This document shows positions 14,217 through 54,137 of a DNA stretch of 64,000 bases, piece after piece. Each line of letters begins with the position of its first letter. The stretch's first letter is position 1. Origin of the DNA: Candidatus Bathyarchaeia archaeon (GTDB lineage Archaea > Thermoproteota > Bathyarchaeia > Bathyarchaeales > Bathycorpusculaceae); contig JBEKHN010000004.1 in the NCBI GenBank assembly GCA_050012255.1, forward strand, positions 47,951 through 111,950. Reading direction: 5' to 3'. Position numbers and translations under genes: made by a program. Below the pieces are notes generated by a model. That model was not told the DNA's origin. It saw nothing but the letters and a program-made list of their open reading frames with translations, and searched no databases.

Positions 14217-14271
14217 ACCCTTCTAGTTAACTTAAGATGCACAAAAAAGTGAAAGAAAGAGGATGTTAAAG

Positions 14272-15066: not shown

Positions 15067-15116
15067 CTATTTCCTTGTTTGTTTCATCTGCATATATGAT
15101 TTTTTCACTTAGCCCT

Positions 15117-17434: not shown

Positions 17435-17562
17435 TTTTTTCAGTTTCTCACCTGCCAAAATGATCCCTCCCAACGTTTAATGAATTGCTTGAAGAACGCT
17501 AATAAAACTTTTGAACGTATGATCCATGTTAGAAAAACGAATAAGAAGGACGGTAGACTTTA

Positions 17563-18717
17563 CTATTGTTGCTTCATCAAATAGTTCGTTATCGTGTACT
17601 TCTGCATTTCACTTGTTCCTTCGTAGATCTCGGTTATCTTGGCACATCTGTGGTAGCGTTCGACGTGATAGTCGGCTAAGTAGCCGTAGCCCCCGAAGAT
17701 CTGGATCGCGTCGTCTGTGACTTCCATAGCGGCCCTGCTTGCATACGCTTTGGCCATTGAGGTTGCCACAGCGTTCGGTTTCTCTTTGTCGTAGAGCCAG
17801 GCTGCCTTGTACATCATCAGCCGGGCTGACTCTATCTTTATCGCCATCTCAGCAAGTCTGAAGCCTATTCCTTGGAAGTTGATTATTGGTTGACCGAACT
17901 GTTTTCTCGTTTTCGCGTAATTTAGGGCCCGTTCGAATGCGCCTTGTGCCATGCCGACTGCTTGGGCGGCTACGGCGATTCTGGTTCCGTCGAAAAGTTC
18001 AAGAGTGTAGTAGAAGCCCTTGCACAGTTCTCCTACGACGTTAGCTTCTGGAACCTTTAAGTCAGCCATGGAAAGCGAACCAGTGACGCATGGTTTGATG
18101 CCCATCTTGCCGTGCAGCTTCGTTGCCTCCAGGCCACACATCCCTTTTTCCGCCAGGAACAGGCTTTGTCCTCTGTGGGAGGGTTGCACGTTGGGATCTG
18201 ACTGGCACAGTATTATGAAAGTGTCGGCTGTTGTGGCGTTCGTTATGAACTCCTTCGCACCGTTTATTGTCCACTCGCTGCCTGTCTTCACAGCGGTTGA
18301 ATCCATGCGGGTAATGTCACTGCCATGTTCGGGTTCTGTGAAGGCCGCTGCAGCTATGTGCTCACCTGTTGCCAAGGGCGGGATGTATTTCTTCTTTTGC
18401 TCTTCATTCCCGTGTTTCAGCAGCACGTCCGGGATCATTAGGTTTCCAAGCGAGACAGCAACTCCGAGGCCGGGATCTGCACGGCACATCTCCTCAACAA
18501 CAAGGCAATCTTCGAAAACTCCGTACCCCTGTCCACAATATTCTTGGGGTATTCGCATGCTAGTGAAACCGAGCTGCGCAGCCTTCTTATAGAGGGCCAT
18601 TGGGAACTCTTCTTTCTGGTCCAACTCCAATGCAAGTTCCGGAGTGAGCTCCTTCGCACAGAATTCTCGGACAGCCTTCACAATTTCCTTTTGCTCATCG
18701 TTCAATTTGAAGTCCAT
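17563..18717 (-). CDS. acyl-CoA dehydrogenase (paralogue 2)
   Basis: 384 aa, colinear with paralogue 1 ('AAAFTEPEHGSD', 'QIFGGYGYLADYHVERYHRCAKITEIYEGTSEMQ'). Confidence 0.9.
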   Translation of the reverse strand: MDFKLNDEQKEIVKAVREFCAKELTPELALELDQKEEFPMALYKKAAQLGFTSMRIPQEYCGQGYGVFEDCLVVEEMCRADPGLGVAVSLGNLMIPDVLLKHGNEEQKKKYIPPLATGEHIAAAAFTEPEHGSDITRMDSTAVKTGSEWTINGAKEFITNATTADTFIILCQSDPNVQPSHRGQSLFLAEKGMCGLEATKLHGKMGIKPCVTGSLSMADLKVPEANVVGELCKGFYYTLELFDGTRIAVAAQAVGMAQGAFERALNYAKTRKQFGQPIINFQGIGFRLAEMAIKIESARLMMYKAAWLYDKEKPNAVATSMAKAYASRAAMEVTDDAIQIFGGYGYLADYHVERYHRCAKITEIYEGTSEMQKYTITNYLMKQQ

Positions 18718-18734
18718 AATCCTCTTTCTCCCGT

Positions 18735-19730
18735 TTAGGAGCTTGTTTTCTTTGTTTGAAGCTCATATACTTTGCTTTTCAATGCAGGTACCACTTTGAA
18801 GAGGTCGTCGACAATGCCGTAGTCCGAGAAGCTGAAGATGGGTGCTTTGGGGTCCTTGTTTATGGCTATGATGAGGTCTGAGCTTTTCATCCCCAGGACA
18901 TGTTGGAAGGCGCCGCTTATGCCCACGGCGATGTAGAGCTTGGGCTTCACAGTTTTTCCAGATGTGCCGACTTGGCGGTCGGTAGGCAGCCAGCCCTTGT
19001 CTACGATTGGGCGAGAGCACGAGAGTACTGCACCTAGGGTTTTTGCAAGCTCTTCCATTATTGGCATGTTAGCCGCGTCCTTTATTCCCCGACCGATGCC
19101 GACCAGTTTGTCTGCAGCTGTGATGTCAACTCCGCCTGGAGGCGGCAAAACGTATTGCAGGAACCGTTTTTCTTGTATCTCTTCCGTGAGCGGAGAGGCA
19201 ATTTCCGTTATTCGTCCGTTTGCAGGAGGCATCGGTTTCTGGGGGGCGAAGGTTGCCTGACGGATGGTCGCGATGTAAGTTTCGGCCTTGCGGATGTTGG
19301 CTTGGACGTTCACCTTGCCGCCGTACATCTGTCTGGTAATTGTGAACGCTCCGCTTTCAAAAGCTATGTCTATGCAGTCTGTGGCCAGTGGCTGGTTCAA
19401 GCCAGTTGCGAGTCTTGGAGCTAGGTCCACGCCATATGAGGTGTGTCCCATTAGCAACAGCAAGGGCCTATGCGCGGTGATCAGGGTTGTGAGGATTTTC
19501 CTGTAAGCTTCAGAGTTGAAGTTCTCAAGCTTGGGATCTTCAATGAACAACACGTTCTTTGCGTATTCTGCCAGACTCTTGGCGTGTTCTTTTACGGTTT
19601 TTCCCAGCAGAACAGCGTTGAGCTCTGCACCAGTGTTTTCTGAGAGCTCTCTGGCTTTTGTGAGCATTTCGAAGGTTATGTCTCTCATCTGTCCCTGTCT
19701 GTGTTCGGCCAAAACGAAAATCTCTGTCAT
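18735..19730 (-). CDS. etfA: electron transfer flavoprotein alpha subunit
   Basis: 331 aa with the C-terminal FAD-binding signature 'PKLYIAVGISGAFQHVLGMKSSDLIIAINKDPKAPIF'. Confidence 0.88.
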   Translation of the reverse strand: MTEIFVLAEHRQGQMRDITFEMLTKARELSENTGAELNAVLLGKTVKEHAKSLAEYAKNVLFIEDPKLENFNSEAYRKILTTLITAHRPLLLLMGHTSYGVDLAPRLATGLNQPLATDCIDIAFESGAFTITRQMYGGKVNVQANIRKAETYIATIRQATFAPQKPMPPANGRITEIASPLTEEIQEKRFLQYVLPPPGGVDITAADKLVGIGRGIKDAANMPIMEELAKTLGAVLSCSRPIVDKGWLPTDRQVGTSGKTVKPKLYIAVGISGAFQHVLGMKSSDLIIAINKDPKAPIFSFSDYGIVDDLFKVVPALKSKVYELQTKKTSS

Positions 19731-19731
19731 G

Positions 19732-20520
19732 TTAAATTAACCCCCTCGACTTGAGGATCTCAGCAATCTTGGCTGCAACCTCGTCTGGGCTTCCCTTCAG
19801 AAACTCGGCCTGTTTCGCTGCTGGTGGAACATACATCTTTTCTATAGTTGTCCATGAACCCGCTGGGCCAACGTCGTTTTCAGTTAAGCCCGTGTCGGCA
19901 AGCGCCATCACCTTGATCTCTTTCTGCATAGCTTTTCGAATTCCCATTATCGAGACATACCTTGGCTCGTTTATCCCCGTCTGCACGGAAAAAAGCGCGG
20001 GTAGTTTAACTTCAACCTGCTCTTCCAAGCCTCCTTCAAGTTCACGGTTGACTTTAGCCACACCTGGGCCCAGCTCGATTTTCTTTACCATCGTCGCGTG
20101 GGGGATATTGAGCAGCTCTGCGAGTATTGGCCCAACTACTGCGCTTCCGTCATCACCCGCCTGCATTCCAGTCAGGATCAAGTCGTAATGCAGGCTCTTT
20201 ATTGCACTGTGCAGTATCTTTGCGACCGCATAGCCATCGGAGCCGTTGAACTTTTGGTCGGTCATCCTGATCGCCTTGTCCGCTCCCCGAGCCATGCATT
20301 TTCGAAGCGTACTGTCTGAGTCGTCGCCGCCTAATGTTATCGCCGTGACTGTTCCCCCTTGCTTCTCTTTTATCCGTACAGCTTCTTCCAGTGCGTAGTC
20401 GTCCCACTCGTTGATGTCGAAGACCAAGCCCGTCCTGTCTATGCTCTTTCCCGTAGCGTCGATCTTCAGTTCCGCCTCCGCCGTCTCTGGAACATGTTTG
20501 GCGCATACAATTATGTCCAA
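19732..20520 (-). CDS. etfB: electron transfer flavoprotein beta subunit
   Basis: 262 aa: 'MDIIVCAKHVPE...', 'DLILTGMQAGDD'. Its stop is 2 nt from the etfA start. Confidence 0.88.
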   Translation of the reverse strand: MDIIVCAKHVPETAEAELKIDATGKSIDRTGLVFDINEWDDYALEEAVRIKEKQGGTVTAITLGGDDSDSTLRKCMARGADKAIRMTDQKFNGSDGYAVAKILHSAIKSLHYDLILTGMQAGDDGSAVVGPILAELLNIPHATMVKKIELGPGVAKVNRELEGGLEEQVEVKLPALFSVQTGINEPRYVSIMGIRKAMQKEIKVMALADTGLTENDVGPAGSWTTIEKMYVPPAAKQAEFLKGSPDEVAAKIAEILKSRGLI

Positions 20521-20714: not shown

Positions 20715-22364
20715 GTGAAGCAGACAGGGATTGTAGTATTCATTTTGTCTATGGTTATGGTTCTGGTAGTTGGTATTGATCCGTCCGTTTTTGTGTTTCA
20801 CAGCCCGCGCGTTATTGCAGACCAGAATGTGGACTGGTGGCCCATGCGCCAGCATGATTTGGCCCACACTGGATATTCAACTTCAACAGCACCCCTTACA
20901 AACCGAACCCGATGGACCTACAGTGTCGGCTTTGGGGGAGCAGTCAGTTCCTCAGCCGCCGTCGAGGATGGCAAAGTGTACGTCGGATCATATGACGACC
21001 GAGTTTATGCTTTGAATGCTACGACGGGCTCACAAGTGTGGAACTACACGACAGGTAGCTGGGTGGTCTCTTCGCCTGCCGTTGCCGACGGTATGGTTTT
21101 CGTCGGATCGTGGGATAACAATCTTTACGCTTTGAACGCTTCTACAGGGGCCCTGGTGTGGAATTACACGACAGGCAGCCACGTGTATTCTTCTCCTGCT
21201 GTTGCTGGTGGTAGGGTTTACGTGGGGTCAGATGATCACAATGTTTACTGTTTGGATGCTTCGACTGGGGCTTTGGTGTGGAACTACACCACAGGTAACT
21301 GGGTATCTTCTTCTCCTGCAGTTGTCAACGACACAGTCTACCTGGGCTCAGTAGACCACAACGTCTATGCTTTGGACACTGCGAACGGCGCATTAAGATG
21401 GAACTACACAACCTCCTCTAGCGTGTATTCTTCTCCCACCGTCGTTGGCGGCCTAGTCTACGTAGGCTCAGATGACCAAAATGTCTACGCCTTGAACGCA
21501 ACGAACGGCGCACGCATCTGGAACTACACAACCGGCAACGCAGTGGTTTCTTCTCCTGCTGTGGCTGGCGGGATGGTCTACGTGGGATCGTATGACGGCA
21601 AGGTTTACGCCCTGAACGTTACAACGGGAGCACATATATGGAATTACGCAACCAACGGTTTTGTCCTCTCTTCTCCTGCTGTGGCTGGCGACATGGTCTA
21701 CGAGGGCTCAGATGACGGCAACGCTTATGCCTTGAACGCTACAACAGGCGCGTTTGTATGGAAATACACAACTGGTCACTGGGTGTTTTCTTCTCCTGCT
21801 GTTGCCGAAGGCTCGGTCTACGTGGGCTCAGGTGACGGCAAGGTTTATGCTTTTGGTCCAGTGCACGATGTGGCAGTGACGGATGTTGCATGCTCCAAAA
21901 CTGTCGTCGGTCAAGGCTACGGCCTAGACATAACCGTTTATGCAGCAGACTTGGGCAGCTACCCTGAAGCCTTCAACGTTACGGTTTATGCCAACACAAG
22001 TGCTGTTGCGTCACAAATCGTCACCTTGTCAAGCGGTAACTCCGCTGATGTCACCTTAACTTGGAAGGCCGCGGGATTGGTTTATGGCAACTACACGATA
22101 AGCGCCTGTGCTCTGCCAGTTTTAAGCGAAGCAAACGTCACCAATAATAATTTCACGTATGGCCCTGTTAGCGTGACCATCCCAGGCGATGTTGACGGCA
22201 ACGGCATAGTCGACAAAAATGACGCGACACTCTTAGCGAACGCCTTCAACTCAAACCCTGCTTGTTCAAACTGGAACCCAAACGCCGACGTCAACAACGA
22301 TTCGGTCGTTGACATCTACGATGCTATTCTGACCGCAAACCACTTCAACCAACACTACCCATAA
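20715..22364 (+). CDS. secreted PQQ-like 8-bladed beta-propeller, CARDB-like domain and C-terminal dockerin
   Basis: N-terminal hydrophobic signal/anchor ('IVVFILSMVMVLVVG'). Eight approximately 40-aa repeats follow ('VYALNATTG..VWNYTTG..V.SSPAVA.G.VYVGS.D'). An Ig-like segment ('HDVAVTDV...NVTNNNF') precedes a dockerin with two Ca-loops, 'DVDGNGIVDKND' and 'DVNNDSVVDIYD'. Confidence 0.8.
   Translation: MKQTGIVVFILSMVMVLVVGIDPSVFVFHSPRVIADQNVDWWPMRQHDLAHTGYSTSTAPLTNRTRWTYSVGFGGAVSSSAAVEDGKVYVGSYDDRVYALNATTGSQVWNYTTGSWVVSSPAVADGMVFVGSWDNNLYALNASTGALVWNYTTGSHVYSSPAVAGGRVYVGSDDHNVYCLDASTGALVWNYTTGNWVSSSPAVVNDTVYLGSVDHNVYALDTANGALRWNYTTSSSVYSSPTVVGGLVYVGSDDQNVYALNATNGARIWNYTTGNAVVSSPAVAGGMVYVGSYDGKVYALNVTTGAHIWNYATNGFVLSSPAVAGDMVYEGSDDGNAYALNATTGAFVWKYTTGHWVFSSPAVAEGSVYVGSGDGKVYAFGPVHDVAVTDVACSKTVVGQGYGLDITVYAADLGSYPEAFNVTVYANTSAVASQIVTLSSGNSADVTLTWKAAGLVYGNYTISACALPVLSEANVTNNNFTYGPVSVTIPGDVDGNGIVDKNDATLLANAFNSNPACSNWNPNADVNNDSVVDIYDAILTANHFNQHYP
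20905..21870 (+). repeat. eight tandem approximately 120-bp coding repeats (propeller blades)
   Basis: Strings such as 'gtgtggaactacac.acaggt' and 'tcttctcctgctgt.gctgg' recur with a 120-nt period at the DNA level. Confidence 0.7.
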
Positions 22365-23583: not shown

Positions 23584-23973
23584 ACGCTCGCTAAGCCCAA
23601 GCTGGCACTTCGCCCCAAATAGTCTTCAAAAAGAAACAGACTGCAAAAAACACTAAGGGCAAGGTTCTCACGGCTAACAGTTTCCACCTCATGCTAGGTC
23701 CCTCCTATTCTTGACGGTGAAAGGCGCCCGCCTTTTTTCGCCGCAAACCACAGATATGCACAGGAAATTGACTTAACGATAAGTGCGTAGACGATGTGAC
23801 AGACAGTTAATGTACATTCAGACAGAAAAAGAGTCAACAAACCATGTCGTCATGTTGGGCCCTCATCAACCTGAACCTTCAATTCAGATTCAGTATTCAT
23901 AAGCATAAAGTATGTCCTTCATCAGAACTTGTCACCGTTTCAAAAACGGCAAAGTGAAAACTTGGCATTATCG

Positions 23974-24918
23974 ATGATGAAACCCCGCGACCTGATCCGA
24001 GTGCATGACGAAAAGGCAGACCCTTGGAGGATCGTGTGTAGAGAGAAGGGCTCTAACAAGCAGTTGGAAATCATAGAGAACGCCTTGGCAAGATACGGGC
24101 TGTCGCAGAACGAAATAAGAGCGTACGTTTACCTCGCAAGAACTGGCGAAAGGAAAGCTGCAGAAATTGCTGAAGCTATATCACTTCACCGAACCGAAAC
24201 CTACAGAACGCTTCGGGACTTGGAAAAAAGAGGCATCGCGCTCTCAACTTTTGAACGACCGTTGCGGTTCACAGCGGTGCCTCTGGATAAAGCAATCGAA
24301 CGACTGATGGAAACTGAAAAAACGAAGCTCAAGCTTCTTGAGAAAGAAAAGGCCGACTTAATCCAGCTTTGGTCGTCGATGCCAAAGCCAAGAAACGAGA
24401 ATAGCAAAAAGGAAGTGTTCCAAATACTCGAAGGCGAATCGCAAATAATTCTGAAAGCCAACGATCTTCTTGGGAAAACTCGGACGGAACTGCAGATTTT
24501 TGCTCCTGAAGAGCACCTAGCTCAACTGTACCGCAGCGATTTCATGGATAATCTCGAGCAGCACTCTTACGATGTGAGCATCGATCTGCTGACTGAAGAC
24601 TCGTTGAAGAGCAGATTCTTCTGCGAGCGAATCGGTTGGTCAAACCATACATGCTGCGTTGGCGATGTAAGGAAACTGCCTTGTTTCATGATCTCAGACA
24701 GAGAAGAACTTCTCATCGTTTACAACAAAAAATCCGAAGACAAGAGCAGAGCGAGGAAGAAGAAAAGCAGAACTGCGGCTCTCTGGACCAATTGCACCGC
24801 TCTTGTTGTAAGTATGCTGACGCTGTTCTACAGAATGGCCGAAGCTAGAGAAACTGCGCAGGTCTGCACCGCGCAAGCAGCAGAAATCGGCTTGCAAATG
24901 GAAGACCGGGATAGTTAG
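23974..24918 (+). CDS. TrmB-family transcriptional regulator
   Basis: wHTH 'LSQNEIRAYVYLARTGERKAAEIAEAISLHRTETYRTLRDLEKRGI' followed by a coiled coil ('KLKLLEKEKADLIQLW') and a C-terminal domain. ATG 23974 is preferred over TTG 23929. Confidence 0.75.
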   Translation: MMKPRDLIRVHDEKADPWRIVCREKGSNKQLEIIENALARYGLSQNEIRAYVYLARTGERKAAEIAEAISLHRTETYRTLRDLEKRGIALSTFERPLRFTAVPLDKAIERLMETEKTKLKLLEKEKADLIQLWSSMPKPRNENSKKEVFQILEGESQIILKANDLLGKTRTELQIFAPEEHLAQLYRSDFMDNLEQHSYDVSIDLLTEDSLKSRFFCERIGWSNHTCCVGDVRKLPCFMISDREELLIVYNKKSEDKSRARKKKSRTAALWTNCTALVVSMLTLFYRMAEARETAQVCTAQAAEIGLQMEDRDS

Positions 24919-27281
24919 GCGGACAACTTCTCTTTTATGGCGTTGCGCTTCTCCTCTGTCAGCGGACCGAACTTCTTAATCCTGTCAGTGAACATGCTGA
25001 ACAGTTCGGCAGCTTTCTTGTAGACTGGCAACGGCACGTAGCTGTAGCGTACTCGCATGTTTTCGACTCCGTATTTTGCCAGTTCTTTTCCGAGGTCTAT
25101 TATTCTTTTCTTTGTGAACTTCTCGTCGATCTCTTGCGTTCCTTCAACGATCAGAATACCGTCAGCACCGTACGCGAAGGCATAAAGCAGGTGTTTCAAG
25201 CCTAGTATGGCAGTTGTTGGAACTGGAATGATCCTGACGTTTTCCGGATAGTTTGTGCGGTCCAGTCCAAGGAAGTCCATGCCGGTGTAGCCAACATTCT
25301 TGTCGACAAAAGCGACCACTCTGACTTCGCCGGGCTGCTTTTCTTCCAGCACTCCTCTGAGACTGGCAATTATCTGCTTTGCAGTCGCGTTCTTGAAGTC
25401 TATGGCTTCTTGTGGGCAAACAGGTATGCATGCACCGCAGCCTGTGCACTGGAACGCGTCGACCTTGGCCTTGCCGTTCTGCATGCTGATCGCGTTCACT
25501 GGACAAATGGGCATGCAGCCGCCGCAGCCATTGCACAGGTCAGAGATCACAAAGGCTTTCTCAGGAGAAGTCGTGACATAATCACTCTTCAAGAACAGAG
25601 CCGCTTTGGCAGACGCGCCTAAACCGTCTGAGACCGTGTCACGAACGTCTTTCGGGCTTAAGGCGCAGCCGCAAGCAAAAATTCCGGTTACAAGCGAATC
25701 CACTGGGTCAAGCTTGGGATGCTTCTCCGTGATGAAACCGTCCTCACCGAGTGGGACCTTCATTTTTTCGGCCAGTTCCTTCAGTCCTGCTGGCGGAACC
25801 ATCGGCGTTGCCAGCGCGATCATGTCAAACTGCTCTTCGGTCGTCTCGCCGGTTATCGTGTCTTCCGCCACTGCAACGAGCTTGCCGTTGCTGCTATCCT
25901 TGTAGACTTCTGCCACCTTGCCTCGTATGAAACTGACCCCTGCCTCTTCGTCACGCCAGTAGAGGTCTTCGTAACCCTTGCCCGTGGCTCTGATGTCTGT
26001 GTAGTAAATGGTAACATCGATTCCGAGCATTTTCTTCAGCACGAAAGCCTGTTTTAGCGCGTACATGCAGCAGATGCGACTGCAGTATGGGATGTAATTC
26101 TTGTCTCTGGAGCCCGCGCAGAGCACTATGCCGATTTTCTTGACGTCGCTGCCGTCTGCCCTCTTGATGTAGCCGCCCGTGGGGCCTGTGGCTGACACGA
26201 GTCTTTCCAGATCCATCATGGTGATGACGTCTTTGTAGTTGCCGTAACCGTAAGTCTCAAGCTTCTTGGCATCATAGAGCTGGTAGCCAGTTGCCATGAT
26301 GATGCCTCCCACGTGCAAGTCGACCGTGAAACCTTTGTCTGTCAGGCTTACCGCCTTGGCTGGGCAAAGCTGCTCACACTTTCCACACTTTGTGCATGTT
26401 TCAAAGTCAATCGTATAGGCTGAGGGCACAGCCTGTGGGAACTCGATGTAAGCTGCTTTCCTCTGCGAGAGGCCTTCGTTGAACTCGTCTGGACAGGAAA
26501 CAGGGCAAACCTTGGCGCAGACACCGCAGCTTCTGCATTTCTGCACGTCCACGCCTCGAGGTTTCATGAAAACCTTCACGTCATAGTTTCCTGGGCGGCC
26601 GCTGACTTCCTGCACTTCGGAGTATGTGTACAGGGCAACGTTGGGGTTTCTGCCCACTTCGGCCATCCTCGGCGTCAAGATGCACTGCGCGCAGTCCAAT
26701 GTTGGGAAGACCTTCGTCAGTTTTGCCATGTTGCCGCCGATGCTTGGCTTTCGTTCGACTAGATGAACCTTGTAGCCCAGATAGCCGAGCTCAAGAGCGG
26801 CTGTGATGCCTGCTATGCCGCCGCCAACGATGAGAATCTCCCTAGAACCCTTCTCGCTGATAGTCTGCATCGCTTCAAGCTGCTGGCTTCGCTCGTAGCC
26901 GCCTCTAATTAGGCTTATGGCTTTTCTCGTGGCCTCGGCTGAACGGTGAGGGCCGTGAACCCAGGAGTCTTGTTCCCTGATGTTCACAAACTCGAGCATG
27001 AAGGGGTTCAACCCAGCCCTCTCCAAGACAGCTTGAAAAGTTGCAAGGTGCATCCTCGGCGTGCAACTGGCAACCACAACTCTGTCCAAGTTCTCCTTCT
27101 TCACAGAGTCAAGTATCAGTTCCTGAGCTGGCTTGGAGCAAAGATACTTGTGATACTTGGCCACTGCAACGTCAGGCCAACTCTTGACAGTGTCAACGAC
27201 AGATTTTACGTCCACAACGTCGCCTATGTTGCCGCCGCATTCACACACGAAAATGCCGATTCTAGGCGATTTCTTCTCCAT
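24915..27281 (-). CDS. hdrA: heterodisulfide reductase subunit A-like flavoprotein fused to a C-terminal MvhD-like domain
   Basis: Start at ATG 27281 ('MEKKSPRIGIFVCECGGNIG'). FAD motif 'LIVGGGIAGITAA' and HdrA hallmark 'VLCAGSRD...YCSRICCMYALK'. There are four ferredoxin CxxCxxCxxxCP motifs. The C-terminal 'VVAFVDKNVGYTGMDF...ADGILIVEG' is MvhD/FlpD-like. Confidence 0.85.
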   Translation of the reverse strand: MEKKSPRIGIFVCECGGNIGDVVDVKSVVDTVKSWPDVAVAKYHKYLCSKPAQELILDSVKKENLDRVVVASCTPRMHLATFQAVLERAGLNPFMLEFVNIREQDSWVHGPHRSAEATRKAISLIRGGYERSQQLEAMQTISEKGSREILIVGGGIAGITAALELGYLGYKVHLVERKPSIGGNMAKLTKVFPTLDCAQCILTPRMAEVGRNPNVALYTYSEVQEVSGRPGNYDVKVFMKPRGVDVQKCRSCGVCAKVCPVSCPDEFNEGLSQRKAAYIEFPQAVPSAYTIDFETCTKCGKCEQLCPAKAVSLTDKGFTVDLHVGGIIMATGYQLYDAKKLETYGYGNYKDVITMMDLERLVSATGPTGGYIKRADGSDVKKIGIVLCAGSRDKNYIPYCSRICCMYALKQAFVLKKMLGIDVTIYYTDIRATGKGYEDLYWRDEEAGVSFIRGKVAEVYKDSSNGKLVAVAEDTITGETTEEQFDMIALATPMVPPAGLKELAEKMKVPLGEDGFITEKHPKLDPVDSLVTGIFACGCALSPKDVRDTVSDGLGASAKAALFLKSDYVTTSPEKAFVISDLCNGCGGCMPICPVNAISMQNGKAKVDAFQCTGCGACIPVCPQEAIDFKNATAKQIIASLRGVLEEKQPGEVRVVAFVDKNVGYTGMDFLGLDRTNYPENVRIIPVPTTAILGLKHLLYAFAYGADGILIVEGTQEIDEKFTKKRIIDLGKELAKYGVENMRVRYSYVPLPVYKKAAELFSMFTDRIKKFGPLTEEKRNAIKEKLSA

Positions 27282-27371
27282 CGGCGGAAATCTACCTCGT
27301 TTATGAATGATTTTAGATGATTCACGGGAAAACGCTTTAATAACCTTATGCTCCCTTTTCAACAAAAAGCG

Positions 27372-28490
27372 ATGGACGACATGAACGCTCAAGAGCTCAC
27401 TCAGAAACATAAACTTCTTGAATGCATCCAGTGTGGAACGTGCACAGGAAGCTGTCCTGTTGCGAAGAAGGCCAACTTGAACGTCAGAAAGTACATGCGC
27501 GAAGTCGCCACGCTGGGCAAGTTGACCCAGCACCCACAGAATGAATTGTGGAGCTGCACAACATGCAGCGCGTGCGGTGTTCGCTGCCCCAAGGAACTCA
27601 ACCCATATGAGTTCTTGATCGACATCCGCGGGATGGCAGTTGAGGAAGGGCAAATTGCTCCTACGATTCGAGACGCCTTGGAGAGCATATTCAAGAACGG
27701 CAACCCATGGGGAAGAATGCGCAACAAACGCTCTGAATGGATGCAAGGACTAAACATCAAACCCATCTCACAGGGTGCAGAAGTCCTTTTCTTTGTCGGC
27801 TGCACATCAGCCTACGATCCACGCGTCCAAAACGTGCCAAAAAGCCTCGCAAGATGCTTTGAAAAGGCTGGACTGAACTTTGGAATCCTCGGCGACGAGG
27901 AGAACTGCTGCGGAAGCGAGGTTTACGGCATGGGTGAGAAGGGCCTCTTCGAATTCCTAGTTGAAGAGAACATGAAAGCGTTCAACAAGTACAACGTGAA
28001 ACAAGCTGTAACAAGCTGCCCACACGGGTATCACGCTTTTAAGAACAGATACAAGCAAACAAGCTTCGAACCTCTTCACCACACTCAACTTCTCGCCAAG
28101 CTGATTGACGAAAAGAAGTTGACTTTCTCTAAAGAGGTCAACAAGAAGGTCATATACCATGACCCGTGCTTCTTGGGCAAGCAAAACGGCATTTATGACG
28201 AGCCGAGAAAAGTCATCGAGAGCGTTCCAGGCGTCAAACTGCTGGAGTTTGACCGTTCCAGAGCCAGAAGCGTCTGCTGCGAGGGCGGAGGTGGGAGAAT
28301 GTGGGTTGATATCCCAGGCCAACGGTTAGCGGAAACACGGGTGAAAGACGCCGTCGAAGCTGGAGCAGACGTCCTAGCCGTAGCCTGTCCTTACTGCCTA
28401 CTGACCTTTGAAGACGCCGTAAAGACTACAGGCGTCGAAGGCAAAATTCAGATCATGGACATAGCAGAACTTCTCACACTTGCCCTGTAG
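27372..28490 (+). CDS. HdrD-like Fe-S protein (2x[4Fe-4S] plus two CCG domains)
   Basis: 'CIQCGTCTGSCPV' and 'CTTCSACGVRCP', then CCG motifs 'ENCCGSE' and 'SVCCEGGGG...ACPYC'. The track ORF starts at 27348, only about 10 nt after a TATA-like 'TTTAATAA', so ATG 27372 or 27381 is more plausible. Confidence 0.8.
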   Translation: MDDMNAQELTQKHKLLECIQCGTCTGSCPVAKKANLNVRKYMREVATLGKLTQHPQNELWSCTTCSACGVRCPKELNPYEFLIDIRGMAVEEGQIAPTIRDALESIFKNGNPWGRMRNKRSEWMQGLNIKPISQGAEVLFFVGCTSAYDPRVQNVPKSLARCFEKAGLNFGILGDEENCCGSEVYGMGEKGLFEFLVEENMKAFNKYNVKQAVTSCPHGYHAFKNRYKQTSFEPLHHTQLLAKLIDEKKLTFSKEVNKKVIYHDPCFLGKQNGIYDEPRKVIESVPGVKLLEFDRSRARSVCCEGGGGRMWVDIPGQRLAETRVKDAVEAGADVLAVACPYCLLTFEDAVKTTGVEGKIQIMDIAELLTLAL

Positions 28491-28603
28491 CGAGGCGTTT
28501 CCATCGCTAACGCACAAAAACTCGCTTCCCATGACGATTACTGTGCTCAATCAATTATATCGAGACTGAAACCGGTGCGACCCGTCTGCTCCAAGCGAGC
28601 AAA

Positions 28604-28846
28604 TCAGGGTTCACGCGTAATCATCGTCGCCGTCGACCTGACATTCTGGAGTTTTCTGATGCGCGTTACGCTCTGGTTCAGCTCGTCCATAGTTCTTGCG
28701 TTGACTTTTGCAACTATATCATAGTCACCCAGAACAACGAAGGCTTCATCAAAACCCTGAACGCTCTTCAGAGCTTTTAACACGTCATTTTCACAGCCCA
28801 AGTTCACGTTTATCAACACAAAAGCATTAAGCTTCATCCCGACCAT
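28604..28846 (-). CDS. stand-alone Lrp/AsnC ligand-binding (RAM) domain protein
   Basis: 80 aa: 'KLNAFVLINVNLGCENDVLKALKSVQGFDEAFVVLGDYDIVAKVNARTMDELNQSV'. This is a beta-alpha-beta-beta-alpha-beta pattern with no HTH. Confidence 0.7.
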   Translation of the reverse strand: MVGMKLNAFVLINVNLGCENDVLKALKSVQGFDEAFVVLGDYDIVAKVNARTMDELNQSVTRIRKLQNVRSTATMITREP

Positions 28847-29275
28847 CTACCGCCTTGTGTACCTCTGCGAGCCACTATTTAGCATTTTGTCTTTCTCAAT
28901 TTGCATGATTCTACCACTCTGACTGTTAGAAACATTGCCCCCAACTGGCAAAAGGACCTCAGTAGCGCCCGTAAGGACCGCATCAACGGTGCTACGTGCA
29001 GAAAAAACCGAGGGGGGTAGGCGTGTTAGACGAGGCAAAACACGAAACAGGGAACGTTAAGGGTATGTTCAAGATATCTCGCTCCTCAGATGAACATTGC
29101 AACGGTGGCGCGCGCTGAGAATAGGAATCAAGCTGCTGCTCAGAGAGCAGACGAAAGGGCAACCAGGTGACCGTGAATAGACGTTAATCATCAAGCGAAA
29201 CGGGCACACGCTGAGGATGCGAATGCTTCATAAACATGCAACAAGCAGATCAGCCTGTCTTAGAGGGGCTTCGGC

Positions 29276-30208
29276 ATGGAAAGCTATGATTTGATTATAA
29301 TCGGTGCAGGTGCTGCTGGTTTGTCAGGTGGGATCTACGGGGCGAGAAGCGGACTTAAAACTCTCATTCTGGAGGAGAAAATCGCGGGCGGCACGACTGC
29401 AGACGCTCCGTGGGTGGAGAACTACCCTGGGTTTCAAAGCATAAGCGGAACCGAACTTGCACAGAAAATGGCAGCTCATGCCAAGACTTCAGGCGTGAAG
29501 ATCAACGAGTTTGAAAGAGTTGTGAAACTGAGCCTTAGAGGTGACAAGAAGACCGTTGAAACCGAAAAAGCGAGCTATGAAGCCAAGGCAGTAATAGTCG
29601 CTTCTGGAAGCTACTATCGCCAGCTCGGCATTCCGGGTGAAAAAGAGTTTCGAGGAAGAGGCGTCAGCTACTGTGGACTGTGTGACGGACCGTTCTTCAA
29701 GGGAAAAACAGTCTTAGTCGTAGGAGGCGGCAACTCGGCCCTGATAACGGCTCTTTATCTCGCTCATCTCGGCTGCGAAGTCAAGGTTGCACATCGCAGG
29801 GATGTCTTCCGCGCTGAGGACGCCCTGGTTCAGGGACTGAAAAACGTGAAGAACATTGAAGTCTTCATGAACACTGAGGTCAAGGAGATCATCGGCGAAA
29901 AAATGGTCAAGAAAGTCAGCCTGCTTAACAAGCAGAGCGGCGAAACCGAGGAGTTGCCCGTTGACGGTGTCTTCGTCCAGGTCGGGGAAGCCCCCAACAG
30001 TCAACAGGCCGGAGAGGCAGGCGTGGCGGTTGACAAGGACAGCTACGTAATAATCGATGGGTTGCAGCACACGAACATTGAAGGAGTTTACGCGGCAGGT
30101 GACGTTACAAACCATCCTGTTAAACAAGTTGGAACAGCGGTGGGACAGGGCATAACCGCCGCGCTTGAAGCTTATTCTTTCATCCGCAGACCATACTACA
30201 AAAGGTAA
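29276..30208 (+). CDS. thioredoxin reductase-like FAD-dependent pyridine nucleotide-disulfide oxidoreductase
   Basis: 310 aa with 'YDLIIIGAGAAGLSGG', redox-active 'CGLCDG', second Rossmann 'VVGGGNSAL' and 'AAGDV'. Confidence 0.85.
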   Translation: MESYDLIIIGAGAAGLSGGIYGARSGLKTLILEEKIAGGTTADAPWVENYPGFQSISGTELAQKMAAHAKTSGVKINEFERVVKLSLRGDKKTVETEKASYEAKAVIVASGSYYRQLGIPGEKEFRGRGVSYCGLCDGPFFKGKTVLVVGGGNSALITALYLAHLGCEVKVAHRRDVFRAEDALVQGLKNVKNIEVFMNTEVKEIIGEKMVKKVSLLNKQSGETEELPVDGVFVQVGEAPNSQQAGEAGVAVDKDSYVIIDGLQHTNIEGVYAAGDVTNHPVKQVGTAVGQGITAALEAYSFIRRPYYKR

Positions 30209-30320
30209 AGAATGCTCCAAAACTAATATATCGCCCCGAACTCCTTTCCAAACTTTCTAGGGTCTTTCATTCCCAGCTACACTGCAAAGAACCGCTGGCA
30301 AGCGCTGGAGAAACAGTGAA

Positions 30321-31541
30321 ATGAGTGAAAAATGCGTGTCTGCCGTAACGATCAACCAAGACTACTGTAGCAAGTGTTCCATTTGCCATTCCGTCTGTCC
30401 TTACGAAGCCATAAAGCGGGACTTGGAAACAGGCAAGGTGGAGATAGACCTACAAAAGTGTCAGGTCTGTGGCATATGTTACAGCGCCTGTCCTGTTATG
30501 GCGATACAGATAGTCTACTATGACTATGACAGCCTCGTCAAATACGTGAAGGCCATGAGGGAAAAATGCAGGAGCGACACGCTTGTCCTGATGTGCAGGG
30601 GAAACTCGCCGTCAACGTGCGAGGTTGAAGAAATCCTCCAAGAGCAATGCTTGAAAACGAAAAAGTACGTCCCGTTGCGCCTGCCTTGTGCTGGACGAAT
30701 CCCCGCCGAGTTTGTGTTTAAAGTCTTGAAGAGTGGCATAAAGAAAGTTGTGTCCATTCAGTGCGAGGACAGTTTCTGCCGTTTCAAAGAGGGCACCAAA
30801 ATAAGCACCAGAAAGCTGCTCCTCGGCAGGGGGGTTCTTGAACAGCTCGGCTTGCCCAGAGACGCCTTCAAAGTGATAAAGCACTCTAGGAAAGCGGTTT
30901 ACGACACGACAAAATGCGTGGGCTGCGACAAGTGCGTGTTCATCTGCCCCTACAAAGCAATAGAGGCAGAACCGTTCGCAACACCGAGAATACTTAGCGA
31001 AAAGTGCATGGGCTGTGGAGCATGCGCTCTAGTCTGTCCGCACGAGGCTATTGAAATCAAGGGTTTCGAGTTTGAAAACGTTCTGAAACGCTACACAGAA
31101 TCTGCTAAGAAGCTGAAAGAAGCAGGCATATCGCCGTTGGTTCTAGTCTTCGCGTGCCAATGGTCAGAGTTCCAAGCCTTGGATGGTCTTGAAGACCATT
31201 TATTCAAGAGAAAAGCGGTAACGATGGAGATTCCCTGCTTCAAAGCACTCGACCCAATTCACGTTATCAACGCGTTGCAAAACGGTTTTGACGGAGTGAT
31301 CGCCGCCGTGTGCCCACCAGAAGACTGCAAGCTTCAGGAAGGAAAGGACACCGCCGAAAGAAACGTCACTGTACTAAATAACGCTTTAAAGAAAATGGGC
31401 CTGCTCGAACGCTTCGAACTTTTCACAACTTCTCCGCGATGCGTCGGCGAATTCAACGAGAAACTGAACGAGTTCTACGAGAAGATAGCTTTGATGCCGC
31501 CTCTGAAGTTAGAAGCAGTAGAGGCAAAAGCCCATGTATGA
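30321..31541 (+). CDS. polyferredoxin with two MvhD/FlpD-like domains
   Basis: 406 aa built as two modules of [2 x CxxCxxCxxxCP + MvhD-like domain]. The ferredoxin motifs are 'CSKCSICHSVCP', 'CQVCGICYSACP', 'CVGCDKCVFICP' and 'CMGCGACALVCP'. The MvhD-like segments are 'LVLMCRGN...LPCAGRIP...IQCEDSFCRF' and 'LVFACQWS...IPCFKALD...AVCPPEDCKL'. Confidence 0.75.
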   Translation: MSEKCVSAVTINQDYCSKCSICHSVCPYEAIKRDLETGKVEIDLQKCQVCGICYSACPVMAIQIVYYDYDSLVKYVKAMREKCRSDTLVLMCRGNSPSTCEVEEILQEQCLKTKKYVPLRLPCAGRIPAEFVFKVLKSGIKKVVSIQCEDSFCRFKEGTKISTRKLLLGRGVLEQLGLPRDAFKVIKHSRKAVYDTTKCVGCDKCVFICPYKAIEAEPFATPRILSEKCMGCGACALVCPHEAIEIKGFEFENVLKRYTESAKKLKEAGISPLVLVFACQWSEFQALDGLEDHLFKRKAVTMEIPCFKALDPIHVINALQNGFDGVIAAVCPPEDCKLQEGKDTAERNVTVLNNALKKMGLLERFELFTTSPRCVGEFNEKLNEFYEKIALMPPLKLEAVEAKAHV

Positions 31542-32373
31542 AATCATATCAGAGAAAGAGCTTGCCCCGAAAATCAAGCTCTTTGAGGTTCACGCTCCAG
31601 AAATTGCTGAAAAGACGCGCCCTGGACAATTCATAATGCTCATGATACACGAAAAGGGCGAACGCATACCACTAAACATAGCTGGCTACGACACGAAGAA
31701 GGGAACAGTGAGCATCGCTTTCAACGAAGTCGGTAAAACGACAAAACAGCTGGGATGCCTGAAAATAGGCGACTGCATACAGAGCATAACGGGACCGCTC
31801 GGAAACCCTTCAGAAATAAGAAAGTTCGGTAACGTCCTGTGCGTTGCGGGAGGCGTGATGGTCGCACCGATGCTGTTGCTGGTTCAAGCGCTTCGCGAAA
31901 AGGGTAACAGGGTGACCACGGTGGTCGGTGCGAGAATCAAGGACCTACTCTTCTATGAGGAAGAGATGAAGAGCCTCAGCGTCAAGTCTTACGTGGCGAC
32001 CGATGATGGTTCAAAGGGCTTCAAGGGCTTCGATTTTCTCAAGCGTGTTCTTGAAAAGGAGAAGTTTGACCGTTGCGTGGCTTGGGGACCCGTTGTGATG
32101 ATGAAAAACGTGTCGGAAATAACAAAACCTCACAGCCTGCCTACGATTGTCACCTTGTCGCCGATAATGATCGACGGGATGGGCATGTGCGGCGTGTGCC
32201 GCGTCACAGTGAACGGAAAAATGAAATTCGGGTGCTTTGACGGGCCAGAATTCGACGGTCACATGGTAGATTTTGACCAGCTGATAAACAGGCAGAGGAT
32301 GTTCCTGCCAGAAGAGAGGCTGAGCTCACTCGTGTGGGAAATGCAAGGAAGCTGCGCACGTGGCCGAAAGTAA
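31534..32373 (+). CDS. NfnA/SudB-like ferredoxin-NADP reductase-type small subunit (PyrK-like)
   Basis: 279 aa with 'RPGQFIMLMIHEKGERIPLNI', 'VAGGVMVAP' and the C-terminal [2Fe-2S]-type 'DGMGMCGVCRV...FGCFDGPEF'. It overlaps the upstream gene by 8 nt. Confidence 0.8.
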   Translation: MYEIISEKELAPKIKLFEVHAPEIAEKTRPGQFIMLMIHEKGERIPLNIAGYDTKKGTVSIAFNEVGKTTKQLGCLKIGDCIQSITGPLGNPSEIRKFGNVLCVAGGVMVAPMLLLVQALREKGNRVTTVVGARIKDLLFYEEEMKSLSVKSYVATDDGSKGFKGFDFLKRVLEKEKFDRCVAWGPVVMMKNVSEITKPHSLPTIVTLSPIMIDGMGMCGVCRVTVNGKMKFGCFDGPEFDGHMVDFDQLINRQRMFLPEERLSSLVWEMQGSCARGRK

Positions 32374-33769
32374 ACCGAAGCCAAGAGTCAAGAAAGAAGC
32401 CGAGCCGATGCCCAAGCAGAAGCCAGCAGTCCGTAGGAAAAACTTCAACGAGGTTGCATTGGGCTACACCGAGGAGCAGGCCAAAGCAGAAGCAAACCGG
32501 TGTTTGCAATGCGCAAAACCGCAGTGCGTGGCAGGCTGCCCGGTGGAAATAGACATCCCAGACTTCATCAGGCTACTCAGAGAAGGAAAATGCGAAGAGG
32601 CTGCAAAGAAGCTCAAGGAAAAAAACAGTCTGCCAGCGATCTGCGGGCGCGTGTGCCCACAAGAAGACCAGTGTCAGAAATTATGTGTCCTCGGGAAAGT
32701 TGGCGAACCCGTAAGTATCGGCAGGCTAGAACGTTGGTTGGCCGATTGGGAGAGAGAAACAGGCAACGTCAAGGTTCCAGAGAAAACAGGGTCCACAGGC
32801 AAGAAGGTCGCCGTAGTCGGTGCTGGCCCGGCTGGACTTACCGCTGCAGCTGACTTGGCAAAGCTTGGGCACGAGGTCGTTGTTTTTGAGGCGCTCCACT
32901 TGCCAGGAGGCGTGCTTGTCTACGGCATTCCCGAGTTCCGATTGCCGAAGAGAATAGTTCAGGCAGAAGCTGATTACGTTCAGAAATTAGGTGTCGAGCT
33001 TCGCCTAGGGTACTTGGTCGGCAGGGTCTACACGATTCCAGAGCTGCTCAAGAAGAAGGGTTTTGAAGCGGTCTTCATAGGTACGGGCGCCGGTTTGCCT
33101 GCTTTTCTAGGCGTGCCCGGAGAAGACCTGGGCGGAATCTACTCTGCCAACGAGTTTTTGATCCGAGTGAACCTGATGAAAGCTTACGCGTTTCCAGAGT
33201 ATGACACGCCTATAAGGATCGGAAAACACGTCGTTGTCATCGGCGGAGGCAACGTGGCCATGGACTCTGCCCGGTCTGCACTGCGTCTAGGCGCTGAAGA
33301 AGTCTGCATTGTCTATCGACGCTCAAGGGAAGAGATGCCTGCTCGGCACGAGGAGATCGAGAACGCTGAGGAAGAGGGCATAGTGTGCAAGTTCTTAGCC
33401 AACCCAACTAGGTTCTACGGCGACGAGAAAGGCTGGGTCAAATCCATGGAGTGCATCTGCATGGAACTCGGCCCCCCAGACGAGTCTGGCAGAAGAAGAC
33501 CCGTTCCAATAAAGGGTTCAGAGTTCATCATCGAAACTGACACGGTGATAGTTGCCGTTGGAAGAAATCCCAACCCCATCGTGCAGAGCACGACCGAAGG
33601 GTTGGCGGTCACCAAATGGGGAACGATAGTCACAGATGAGAATGGCAAGACCAGCCTTGAAGGCGTCTACGCTGGCGGCGACATAGTCACGGGCGAGGCA
33701 ACCGTGATAAGCGCCATGGGCGCTGGTAAGAAGGCGGCAAAAGCCATAGACGAATATCTTAAAAAATGA
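32360..33769 (+). CDS. NfnB/SudA/GltD-like NAD(P)H oxidoreductase large subunit
   Basis: 469 aa with 'RCLQCAKPQCVAGCPVEIDIPDFI' and 'ICGRVCPQEDQCQKLC'. Two dinucleotide folds are present, 'VAVVGAGPAGLTAA' and 'VVVIGGGNVAMD', plus 'YAGGDIVTG'. It overlaps nfnA-like by 14 nt. Confidence 0.85.
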   Translation: MAESKPKPRVKKEAEPMPKQKPAVRRKNFNEVALGYTEEQAKAEANRCLQCAKPQCVAGCPVEIDIPDFIRLLREGKCEEAAKKLKEKNSLPAICGRVCPQEDQCQKLCVLGKVGEPVSIGRLERWLADWERETGNVKVPEKTGSTGKKVAVVGAGPAGLTAAADLAKLGHEVVVFEALHLPGGVLVYGIPEFRLPKRIVQAEADYVQKLGVELRLGYLVGRVYTIPELLKKKGFEAVFIGTGAGLPAFLGVPGEDLGGIYSANEFLIRVNLMKAYAFPEYDTPIRIGKHVVVIGGGNVAMDSARSALRLGAEEVCIVYRRSREEMPARHEEIENAEEEGIVCKFLANPTRFYGDEKGWVKSMECICMELGPPDESGRRRPVPIKGSEFIIETDTVIVAVGRNPNPIVQSTTEGLAVTKWGTIVTDENGKTSLEGVYAGGDIVTGEATVISAMGAGKKAAKAIDEYLKK

Positions 33770-44272: not shown

Positions 44273-44739
44273 TAATCCAGAATCTAATCTGTTTGACAAT
44301 TCTCCTTCTCTTGATCTTACATGGTTAAACCAACAGATAAAAGTTCGCGCGCTCCATTCAAAGAACCAGGTAGAACAGTCAAATGTGCGAACAGCAGGTC
44401 GCAAAAATCTCTTTAGGACATGGAATGTCGATGGAAATGGTCTGTGTCGTTTGCAACTAGGTGAAGAACAAACCGTTCCACATCGCTGACATAGCGTAAA
44501 ATGATGATACGCTTTTGGCGGAGAGGTCACACAAAAATCCACGCGCCATTGAAAGCCACAATAGGACAAAACATAAGATTCTAGTAGCGGCGTGAAGCAT
44601 TTTGCTACAAAACCCTCCTCTTCCGGAATCTTCTCCGGCCAAGAATGCAAGAAGCATCTGAATGACAAAGCAAATCTCGGAGAAGTTCTAATCATTCTAA
44701 GATCAGCAGAAAACAGGGAACTAGAAGCAGGTCTAAGGC

Positions 44740-54135: not shown

Positions 54136-54137
54136 CG

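Follow-up and report, generated by a model that had tools for sequence, protein, structure and literature searches.

Bathyarchaeia are uncultured and among the most abundant archaea of anoxic sediments, and current views of their energy metabolism rest on gene lists. NfnI-type enzymes, which are among the closest described relatives of the system considered here, catalyse the reaction Fd_red + NADH + 2 NADP+ <-> Fd_ox + NAD+ + 2 NADPH (Fd, ferredoxin). In complexes of heterodisulfide reductase (Hdr), structures show that MvhD acts as a connector, docking Mvh, Fdh, or Elp modules onto HdrA (PMC12350162). This article concerns a 64,000-nt stretch of DNA from Candidatus Bathyarchaeia archaeon (assembly GCA_050012255.1, contig JBEKHN010000004.1, positions 47,951 to 111,950 of the forward strand), which is referred to as the window and numbered from its first nucleotide. 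It carries a redox island in which an Hdr-like gene pair is followed by a unit encoding thioredoxin reductase (TrxR), an MvhD-type polyferredoxin, and NfnAB; genes for electron transfer flavoprotein (ETF) and beta-oxidation lie nearby. We tentatively interpret the island, with a probability of about 0.45, as a hub of soluble modules for electron bifurcation, conserved in Bathyarchaeia, in which Nfn with an adaptor stands next to a paralogous, ETF-linked Hdr, and not as a single hydrogenase-free Hdr machine. Its probable role is to keep electrons in balance between ferredoxin, NAD(P)H, H2, and the breakdown of fatty acids.

Comparison with Described Systems

The window open reading frames (ORFs) were identified by Pfam, NCBIfam, and PDB searches, with Pfam scans on every ORF of at least 150 aa. 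By these comparisons, the parts of the island all come from known families (Nfn, HdrA, CCG/EtfD, MvhD, and TrxR), and comparative genomics supports their combination. NfnA and NfnB are full-length orthologues of the NfnAB/NfnI enzymes of Thermotoga maritima (4YLF) and Pyrococcus furiosus (5JCA), with the same Arg187, iron-sulfur (FeS) motifs, and overlapping gene pair. However, the pair is preceded here by trxB and by a coupled gene for a 406-aa protein, [Fd-MvhD]x2, in which ferredoxin and MvhD domains occur twice.

With the MvhADG-HdrABC, Fdh-Hdr-Fmd (7BKB), and Elp-Hdr (8RVU) complexes, the island shares the HdrA architecture, the K409/E356 residues, and the MvhD connector fold (PMC12350162). 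It differs from them in that no hydrogenase, formate dehydrogenase (FDH), or Elp arm is encoded with the island and a fused HdrD/EtfD-like protein takes the place of HdrBC. Moreover, HdrA is fused to an MvhD domain without a cluster, whereas the two functional MvhD domains are found on a separate polyferredoxin beside Nfn. The type-Ia HdrA2B2C2 of Methanosarcina acetivorans is likewise an HdrA-MvhD fusion, and the HdrA2 model is the best NCBIfam match, end to end, of the window protein HdrA1 (PMC12054007). By contrast, HdrA1 scores under the cutoff of this model (838 vs 1100 bits), its partner is HdrD-like and not HdrB2C2, its MvhD domain has none of the cysteine ligands, and its host is not a methanogen.

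HdrA proteins with an inserted NfnB/GltD domain occur in ANME-1 and Bathyarchaeota, where the Bathyarchaeotal fusion clusters with mvhADG (PMC9012536, PMC12054007). As in the window, HdrA is associated there with an NfnB-type NAD(P)H module, and the existence of such fusions makes a physical link between Nfn and Hdr plausible. The difference is that NfnB of the window is a separate canonical subunit, whose link to HdrA, if any, would run via the adaptor protein. Non-hydrogenase NAD(P)H modules are joined to HdrA via MvhD-type proteins in MetFV-HdrABC-MvhD of Moorella thermoacetica and in FlxABCD-HdrABC of Desulfovibrio. Here, in contrast, MetFV and Flx genes are lacking and a complete bifurcating Nfn serves as NAD(P)H module; among the window ORFs, Pfam scans revealed nothing else close to the island that resembles an NAD(P)H dehydrogenase, and Nfn takes the place of Flx. 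Lastly, EtfD of Mycobacterium smegmatis (9OJN) and EMO of Syntrophus resemble the HdrD-like protein in having two [4Fe-4S] clusters plus two CCG domains, the D2 ligands including a histidine, and an association with etfAB-acd. The HdrD-like protein differs in its lack of a membrane/heme-b domain, in its D1 site (CC...C-P-H-G vs C-T...CxxC), and in its partner, which is HdrA and not quinone.

Literature searches returned no description of a conserved adaptor-Nfn operon or its hydrogenase-linked relatives, of an MvhD-type subunit encoded with NfnAB, of a cluster-less MvhD domain on a conserved HdrA paralogue, or of a soluble EtfD-like partner linked to etfBA-acd.

The Nfn Unit and Its Putative Adaptor

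All seven genes that an earlier reading of the bare sequence (the original prediction) had placed in the island were found, with the domains, overlaps, and spacer that it described. Four of them form a unit on the plus strand: trxB (29276-30208), fdmvhD2 encoding [Fd-MvhD]x2 (30321-31541), nfnA (31534-32373), and nfnB (32360-33769). The last three are a tightly overlapped trio, with overlaps of 8 nt between fdmvhD2 and nfnA and 14 nt between nfnA and nfnB, both verified on the sequence.

NfnB is a GltD-like large subunit (FAD, two [4Fe-4S], NADPH) that matches T. maritima NfnB over 457 residues (4ylf_B, E 2.3e-180) and scores 636 bits against TIGR01316, over the cutoff of 472. It keeps the equivalent of Arg187 within the motif GIPEFRLPK; in NfnB, this arginine hydrogen-bonds N5 of the bifurcating FAD (PMC6405883). 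NfnA is a PyrK-like FAD/[2Fe-2S] small subunit, closest to that of P. furiosus NfnI (5jca_S, E 9.6e-89), with 364 bits against PRK06222 (cutoff 220), a PF10418 match, and the [2Fe-2S] motif DGMGMCGVCRV...C. Both proteins have the features that define the large and small Nfn subunits and, judged by its orthology to characterised Nfn, NfnAB is a canonical NfnI-type enzyme. The trxB product has the features of a low-Mr NADPH thioredoxin reductase, namely the CGLCDG motif, the HRRD NADPH motif (in HRRDVFRAE), and similarity to Methanosarcina mazei TrxR (4zn0_A, E 2.5e-74), with a borderline family score (342.3 bits against TIGR01292, cutoff 343.45).

What might the [Fd-MvhD]x2 protein contribute? 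Pfam detects two FlpD and four Fer4 domains in it. Twenty-four cysteines are invariant in 17 homologues down to 31% identity: 16 belong to the ferredoxin domains (4x4) and eight form the MvhD sets C92/C123/C148/C153 and C279/C306/C331/C336. Both MvhD modules thus have the complete four-cysteine set, and the 24 invariant cysteines predict four clusters of the [4Fe-4S] type and two of the [2Fe-2S] type. An AlphaFold2 monomer model (pLDDT 82.5, pTM 0.79) confirms the MvhD fold, with MvhD chains as its top Foldseek matches (TM-score 0.77-0.81); the same Foldseek search found no solved protein with the whole architecture. By NCBIfam, each repeat resembles the C-terminal ferredoxin and MvhD part of HdrA2. 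The family is modest in size, with 49 clusters at E<1e-30 among 1.8 billion representatives.

The gene neighbourhoods of distant family members are informative (loci of relatives are designated by L numbers). Some members are encoded in tight operons with NfnAB and the small and large subunits of [NiFe] hydrogenase (the P0128 contig, L091, L113, and L116); the genes of the L091 operon overlap by 8, 4, and 4 nt. Others adjoin metF/metV. With partners as varied as NfnAB-hydrogenase and MetFV, the [Fd-MvhD]x2 protein behaves as a modular adaptor. Given these operon contexts and the role of MvhD as a connector, it can be read as a putative third subunit that would wire the FeS branch of Nfn to another module, and the extra coupled gene suggests a heterotrimeric Nfn. 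To our knowledge, no characterised NfnAB has a third subunit. If [Fd-MvhD]x2 is truly a subunit of Nfn, the enzyme would be wired to hydrogenase, Hdr, and MetFV and would not be a free-standing transhydrogenase. A further variant is found in L095 (4721-9303), where [Fd-MvhD]x2 is followed by an NfnA-like protein (315 aa) and the small and large [NiFe] subunits, without NfnB. It may represent a different NAD(P)-linked hydrogenase architecture.

Conservation in Bathyarchaeia

The conservation of the island was examined in a scan of one genome per species, with a six-sequence alignment of [Fd-MvhD]x2 as query. It returned 377 relatives, and the locus counts given here rest on the best 80 (64-93% identity). 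The homologues carry Bathyarchaeia annotation. In the closest genome, the 2.35-Mb chromosome OY970176.1, the identity is 93%, amino-acid identities run from 93 to 97%, and the synteny is identical to that of the window.

An invariant one-strand unit, trxB-[Fd-MvhD]x2-nfnA-nfnB, emerges from the comparison. Among loci with enough flanking sequence, TrxR is present in 75/76, NfnA in 75/76, and NfnB in 66/66; [Fd-MvhD]x2 is present in 80/80, and the start/stop overlaps of the unit are conserved. The arrangement noticed in the window is therefore not peculiar to it: the trio recurs in 80/80 species loci, about two-thirds of which have the Hdr pair next to it. Every species-level genome that was sampled has the island, which therefore probably holds a central place in the redox economy of Bathyarchaeia.

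The order of genes around this core is shuffled. The divergent hdrA1/hdrD pair lies directly upstream of the core unit in 41/63 loci. In two further loci, L064 and L066, an unfused hdrA and hdrD are co-directional with the Nfn unit, which results in the six-gene array hdrA-hdrD-trxB-fdmvhD2-nfnA-nfnB. Compact loci from hot springs (L060, L070, and L077) carry hdrA1 on one strand, followed after 107-159 bp by etfB-etfA-acd-hbd-acd, and on the other strand hdrD-(small ORF)-trxB-fdmvhD2-nfnA-nfnB-acs-mvhG-mvhA-hdrA2. When all flanking ORFs of the window and the 80 loci were clustered without bias (81 sequences), the recurrent neighbours were the Hdr pair (49), ADP-forming acetyl-CoA synthetase (22), mvhG (16), etfB (14), mvhA (14), etfA (13), hypD (10), hypF (9), and AMP-forming acyl-CoA synthetase (7). 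A flavodoxin gene is found directly upstream of trxB in 6/81 sequences (L062, L071-L073, L078, and L079; for example L071 8363-8815). It is encoded on the strand opposite to trxB at loci that lack the adjacent Hdr pair, where flavodoxin might serve the Nfn unit as another low-potential partner.

The titles of the best 80 relatives all name Bathyarchaeia or Bathyarchaeota except that of L079 (DATGZD010000019.1), which carries a complete trxB-fdmvhD2-nfnAB unit and is labelled Candidatus Sulfotelmatobacter sp., an acidobacterium. It is probably a mis-binned Bathyarchaeia contig.

HdrA1 and the HdrD-Like Protein

Upstream of the Nfn unit, the gene hdrA1 (24915-27281, minus strand) encodes a protein of 788 aa, starting at MEKKSPRIG, which Pfam, PDB, and NCBIfam searches identify as a type-Ia HdrA fused to an MvhD-like domain. 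Residues 4-647 align end to end with methanogen HdrA (8rvu_a, E 1.5e-188; 5odc_A, E 1.4e-178) at about 50% identity and have the HdrA layout, which consists of an N-terminal FeS domain, a TrxR-fold FAD domain, and inserted and C-terminal ferredoxin domains. K409 and E356 are the residues that mark bifurcating HdrA flavin sites (PMC12054007). In the alignment, HdrA1 keeps both, as K410 in CCMYALK and the glutamate of MDLERL; in domain layout and flavin-site residues it is an HdrA protein.

The original prediction rightly noted that this flavoprotein has a C-terminal MvhD-like domain of its own (residues 655-772; 24966-25319, minus strand; Pfam FlpD, E 6e-20). Despite this match, the domain does not have the four [2Fe-2S] cysteines that characterise type Ia: the four ligand positions are D, T, a gap, and Q. 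HdrA1 orthologues with the cluster-less domain were found in 42 species, at 81-96% identity over the whole protein; 40 of the 42 have no cysteine in the domain and the other two have one. In the Mvh-linked paralogue HdrA2, five to seven cysteines are retained in the equivalent region. The domain is conserved, yet by its sequence it is unfit for electron relay. This leaves two of the three MvhD modules able to carry electrons, and the bridge of three modules originally proposed between Nfn and HdrA is unsupported.

The partner of HdrA1 is encoded divergently (27348-28490, plus strand). As originally described, a protein with two four-cysteine ferredoxin motifs and two CCG domains (Pfam CCG, E 9e-30) stands here in place of HdrB and HdrC. 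Is it a disulfide reductase? The second CCG motif is complete (C274, C310-C311, C347, and C350), but the first is incomplete (C152, C187-C188, C224-P-H226-G), and the C-P-H-G ending with its invariant H226 is found in all 50 HdrD-like orthologues. With this ending, the bridging cysteine on which Hdr-type catalysis relies is missing from CCG1, and the protein does not have the two complete motifs (C...CC...CxxC, with bridging cysteine) that define HdrD/HdrBC. A genuine HdrB, encoded in L049, has both CxxC motifs (CTGC and CPFC). Among solved structures, M. smegmatis EtfD comes closest (9ojn_A, E 2.8e-56), compared with E 2.6e-17 for HdrC and 1.3e-6 for HdrB, and NCBIfam scores for HdrB and HdrC are far under the cutoffs. 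The ligand map of EtfD shows that a histidine, H583, makes the D2 cluster fully coordinated and non-catalytic (PMC13083937). H226 aligns with H583 and all D2 cysteines are present, as in the soluble module of EtfD. The membrane domain of EtfD, with five transmembrane helices and heme b, is absent from the HdrD-like protein, which has 380 aa and a maximum 19-residue hydropathy of 1.47; indeed, no transmembrane segments were found in any of the six island proteins. These motifs make the HdrD-like protein resemble an EtfD module that accepts electrons from ETF more than a disulfide reductase. A cysteine-free MvhD domain and an incomplete CCG motif also mean that "Hdr" annotations in studies of metagenome-assembled genomes should not imply heterodisulfide reduction.

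The two genes are separated by a divergent promoter region (27282-27371), with 66 bp to the ATG at 27348 and 90 bp to the ATG at 27372. A block resembling a transcription factor B recognition element (BRE) and TATA box, GGGAAAACGCTTTAATAACCTTA at 27326-27348, precedes the ATG at 27372 by about 25 nt and is nearly invariant in 41 species. The position of this block favours 27372, eight codons inside the longest ORF, as the probable start of the hdrD-like gene, and it suggests a leaderless transcript. An operator common to the hdrA/hdrD promoter and other promoters was considered and rejected; the conserved 23-mer is unique in the window.

Hydrogenase and ETF in the Neighbourhood

Does the island work independently of hydrogenase, as was originally proposed? 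In ORFs of at least 150 aa, Pfam detected no structural genes of [NiFe] or [FeFe] hydrogenase and no FDH, mcr, or HdrBC genes in the window, and a tblastn search of the window with Bathyarchaeial MvhA and MvhG gave no match. These results agree with the original statement that the window lacks hydrogenase subunit, formate dehydrogenase, and mcr genes. The immediate surroundings are also free of a conventional MvhAG, FdhAB, or HdrBC set: the 10 kb of source contig beyond each window end contains no hydrogenase, FDH, mcr, or HdrBC genes, and holds hyp genes, a ribosomal operon, and housekeeping genes.

However, several observations speak against hydrogenase independence. A [NiFe]-hydrogenase maturation set, hypCDEF, is found in the window at 286-5976 by Pfam and by gene calls on the source contig. 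It comprises hypE (286-1353, plus strand), hypD (2120-3250), hypC (3219-3455), and hypF (3697-5976, these three on the minus strand), with a DUF996 gene between, and its presence argues that the organism makes a [NiFe] hydrogenase. In about ten other Bathyarchaeia loci, the same hyp genes are no more than 10 kb away from the Nfn operon; in L030 and L046, for example, they come after etfBA. In 16/80 relatives, the distance between mvhG-mvhA-hdrA2(mvhD) and the Nfn operon is likewise at most 10 kb; the conventional mvhGA-hdrA2-hdrCB cluster lies 0.4-5 kb from nfnB, and in L049 the full set mvhG-mvhA-hdrA2-hdrC-hdrB starts 0.4 kb past nfnB. A search with Bathyarchaeial MvhA gave more than 8000 matches, and among the 120 matches listed, identity to the query clade is never below 81%. 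Because of hypCDEF, the nearby mvhGA-hdrA2-hdrCB cluster in relatives, and the adaptor-NfnAB-hydrogenase operons of distant relatives, the label "hydrogenase-independent" is unsupported.

The neighbouring ETF and beta-oxidation cluster, by contrast, was correctly recognised. It occupies 13038-20520 on the minus strand and consists of etfB (19732-20520), etfA (18735-19730), acd (17563-18717, downstream of etfA), a 3-hydroxyacyl-CoA dehydrogenase gene (16268-17473), a second acd (15117-16271), and genes for enoyl-CoA hydratase (14272-15066) and thiolase (13038-14216), all identified by Pfam. In relatives, etfBA-acd is repeatedly joined to either module of the island, behind hdrA1 or behind nfnB, in 13 loci altogether. 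The position behind nfnB, at a distance of about 100-150 bp, is that of etfBA(-acd) in L028-L030 and L046. The compact hot-spring loci have etfBA-acd contiguous with hdrA1, and in the window it is near hdrA1. Of the contextual evidence that ETF, Hdr, and Nfn act together, this attachment of etfBA-acd to one module or the other, depending on the genus, is the strongest. A Pfam scan of the window ORFs found no quinone-linked ETF acceptor near etfAB.

A Model of the Proposed Hub and Its Alternatives

How might such a hub operate? In the scheme that we propose, which builds on the observed gene content, motifs, and conserved if shuffled synteny, it is conjectural which proteins touch one another, that ETF is a substrate, and which way the electrons run. 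Module 1 (trxB-[Fd-MvhD]x2-nfnA-nfnB) would interconvert ferredoxin, NADH, and NADPH by means of NfnAB and its adaptor. The adaptor would serve as a six-cluster wire, whose MvhD modules dock the low-potential branch of Nfn onto a partner redox module. In distant relatives this partner would be an Mvh-type [NiFe] hydrogenase, and in the lineage of the window it would be HdrA1, an Mvh hydrogenase encoded elsewhere in the genome, or both; TrxR would be co-expressed as a consumer of NADPH. Module 2 (hdrA1/hdrD-like) is a paralogue of MvhGA-HdrA2-HdrCB that has kept the bifurcation residues at its FAD site. It is distinct from the MvhGA-HdrA2-HdrC-HdrB set present at the same loci. Acyl-CoA dehydrogenases would reduce ETF, and the EtfD-like protein would pass the high-potential electrons to the HdrA1 flavin. 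There they would be confurcated with electrons from reduced ferredoxin, and the mid-potential output could leave to NAD(P)+ (via Module 1) or to H2. If the HdrA1/EtfD-like pair does oxidise ETF, it would offer fermentative or syntrophic archaea a route to dispose of acyl-CoA electrons without a quinone pool.

A stronger version of this idea, which we regard as unlikely, is that Bathyarchaeia have a soluble, quinone-independent complex that oxidises ETF. Electrons would pass from the EtfD-like protein to the HdrA flavin, be confurcated with ferredoxin, and continue through MvhD adaptors to a three-subunit Nfn (yielding NAD(P)H) or to Mvh (yielding H2). If true, this would be an undescribed class of flavin-based confurcating machinery and would explain beta-oxidation in strictly anaerobic archaea that lack respiratory quinones.

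Several points weigh against the hub interpretation. The contacts between the modules are suggested by comparative genomics, and the core Nfn unit is found without an adjacent Hdr pair in about one-third of loci. The type of ETF is ambiguous: EtfB is closest to the non-bifurcating W3A1 ETF (6e-59) while EtfA scores equally with bifurcating ETFs, and the acyl-CoA dehydrogenase (ACAD) together with ETF resembles the clostridial Acr/Bcd systems, with conflicting PDB and NCBIfam scores. Given this conflict, ACAD-ETF could bifurcate alone and HdrD would not be needed. The HdrD-like protein scores nearly as well against TfrB (184 bits) as against EtfD (194 bits). TfrB is a thiol-using CCG enzyme, and the similar score makes a thiol substrate possible for the HdrD-like protein. 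Furthermore, the dead MvhD domain of HdrA1 may occupy the docking site of a functional MvhD, the entry of mid-potential HdrA output into the low-potential ferredoxin branch of Nfn would be thermodynamically awkward, and TrxR may simply be co-regulated.

Could the genes be mere neighbours? NfnAB (with its polyferredoxin), TrxR, HdrA1/HdrD, ACAD-ETF, and Mvh-HdrA2BC might be independent modules that communicate only through free pools of ferredoxin, NAD(P)H, and H2, their clustering reflecting co-regulation in fermentative redox metabolism. In favour of this, the invariant core has a fluid gene order around it, NfnAB is fully canonical and TrxR a normal NADPH enzyme, and the promoters share no operator. 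Independence is hard to reconcile, however, with the translational coupling of the adaptor to nfnA in all species, with the tight adaptor-NfnAB-hydrogenase operons, and with etfBA recurring directly behind hdrA1 or nfnB; moreover, MvhD domains are known only as docking connectors and not as free carriers (PMC12350162). We therefore consider this explanation rather unlikely, if still to be reckoned with. Another alternative is the supercomplex of the original prediction, in which NfnAB would pass electrons of NAD(P)H via three MvhD modules to HdrA, and HdrA would bifurcate to ferredoxin and to a disulfide at the CCG protein, all without hydrogenase. That Nfn and Hdr form one assembly receives some support from their adjacency and from the co-directional array of L064 and L066, from the binding of MvhD to HdrA in known structures (PMC12350162) and the HdrA-NfnB fusions (PMC9012536, PMC12054007), from the K409 and E356 equivalents of HdrA1, and from the invariant disulfide reductase, TrxR, in the cluster. 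But the pair is missing beside Nfn in one-third of loci, the HdrA-fused MvhD lacks cluster ligands, and CCG1 lacks the bridging cysteine for disulfide cleavage, its invariant histidine mimicking the non-catalytic EtfD cluster (PMC13083937). In addition, hyp genes are present in the window, Mvh adjoins the island in relatives, and elsewhere members of the adaptor family share operons with [NiFe] hydrogenase. In this form the supercomplex seems improbable.

Least probable of all, in our judgement very much so, is a conventional H2-driven Hdr, in which MvhAG from elsewhere in the genome would dock on HdrA1, HdrD would reduce a CoM-S-S-CoB-like heterodisulfide, and Nfn would be unrelated. The hypCDEF set, the wide distribution of MvhA in Bathyarchaeia, and the similarity of HdrA1 to methanogen HdrA are all compatible with this arrangement. 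Yet Mvh, where seen, is contiguous with its own HdrA2, which has an intact MvhD domain, and with HdrCB, and not with HdrA1/HdrD; the MvhD domain of HdrA1 is predicted to be unable to relay electrons from MvhG, CCG1 is incomplete, and mcr is absent from the window.

Other Genes of the Window

Two further genes at the island were considered as members of the system and rejected, as both were found only in the closest relatives (L001-L005). One encodes an 80-aa protein that consists of a RAM (AsnC ligand-binding) domain only (28604-28846, minus strand; Pfam); together with the CGLCDG-containing TrxR-like reductase it lies between the Hdr pair and the overlapped trio, as the original prediction had noted. 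The other encodes a TrmB-family regulator (23929-24918, plus strand; Pfam) and is convergent with hdrA1. Between the etf operon and the Hdr pair lies a gene (20715-22364) for a PQQ-like beta-propeller protein that looks secreted and has a dockerin domain at its C-terminus; this gene is absent from the equivalent position in the compact hot-spring loci.

Other parts of the window encode functions of possible metabolic interest. A cluster at 51893-57315 includes methylmalonyl-CoA mutase, a biotin carrier, a PYC_OADA/HMGL-like carboxylase subunit, and a carboxyltransferase; it fits propionyl-/methylmalonyl-CoA metabolism and would complement the beta-oxidation genes. A radical-SAM protein (7532-9058) with an HMPTM N-terminal zinc ribbon, a methanopterin-biosynthesis-type methyltransferase domain, hints that the organism makes a methanopterin-type C1 carrier. 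Two very large ORFs are found at 39770-44905 and 57903-61217: one encodes a 1711-aa S8 peptidase with NosD/beta-helix repeats and the other a 1104-aa protein with zero Pfam matches. A third tRNA gene of 95 nt at 48000-48094, missed by ARAGORN and detected with Rfam (53 bits), probably contains an intron.

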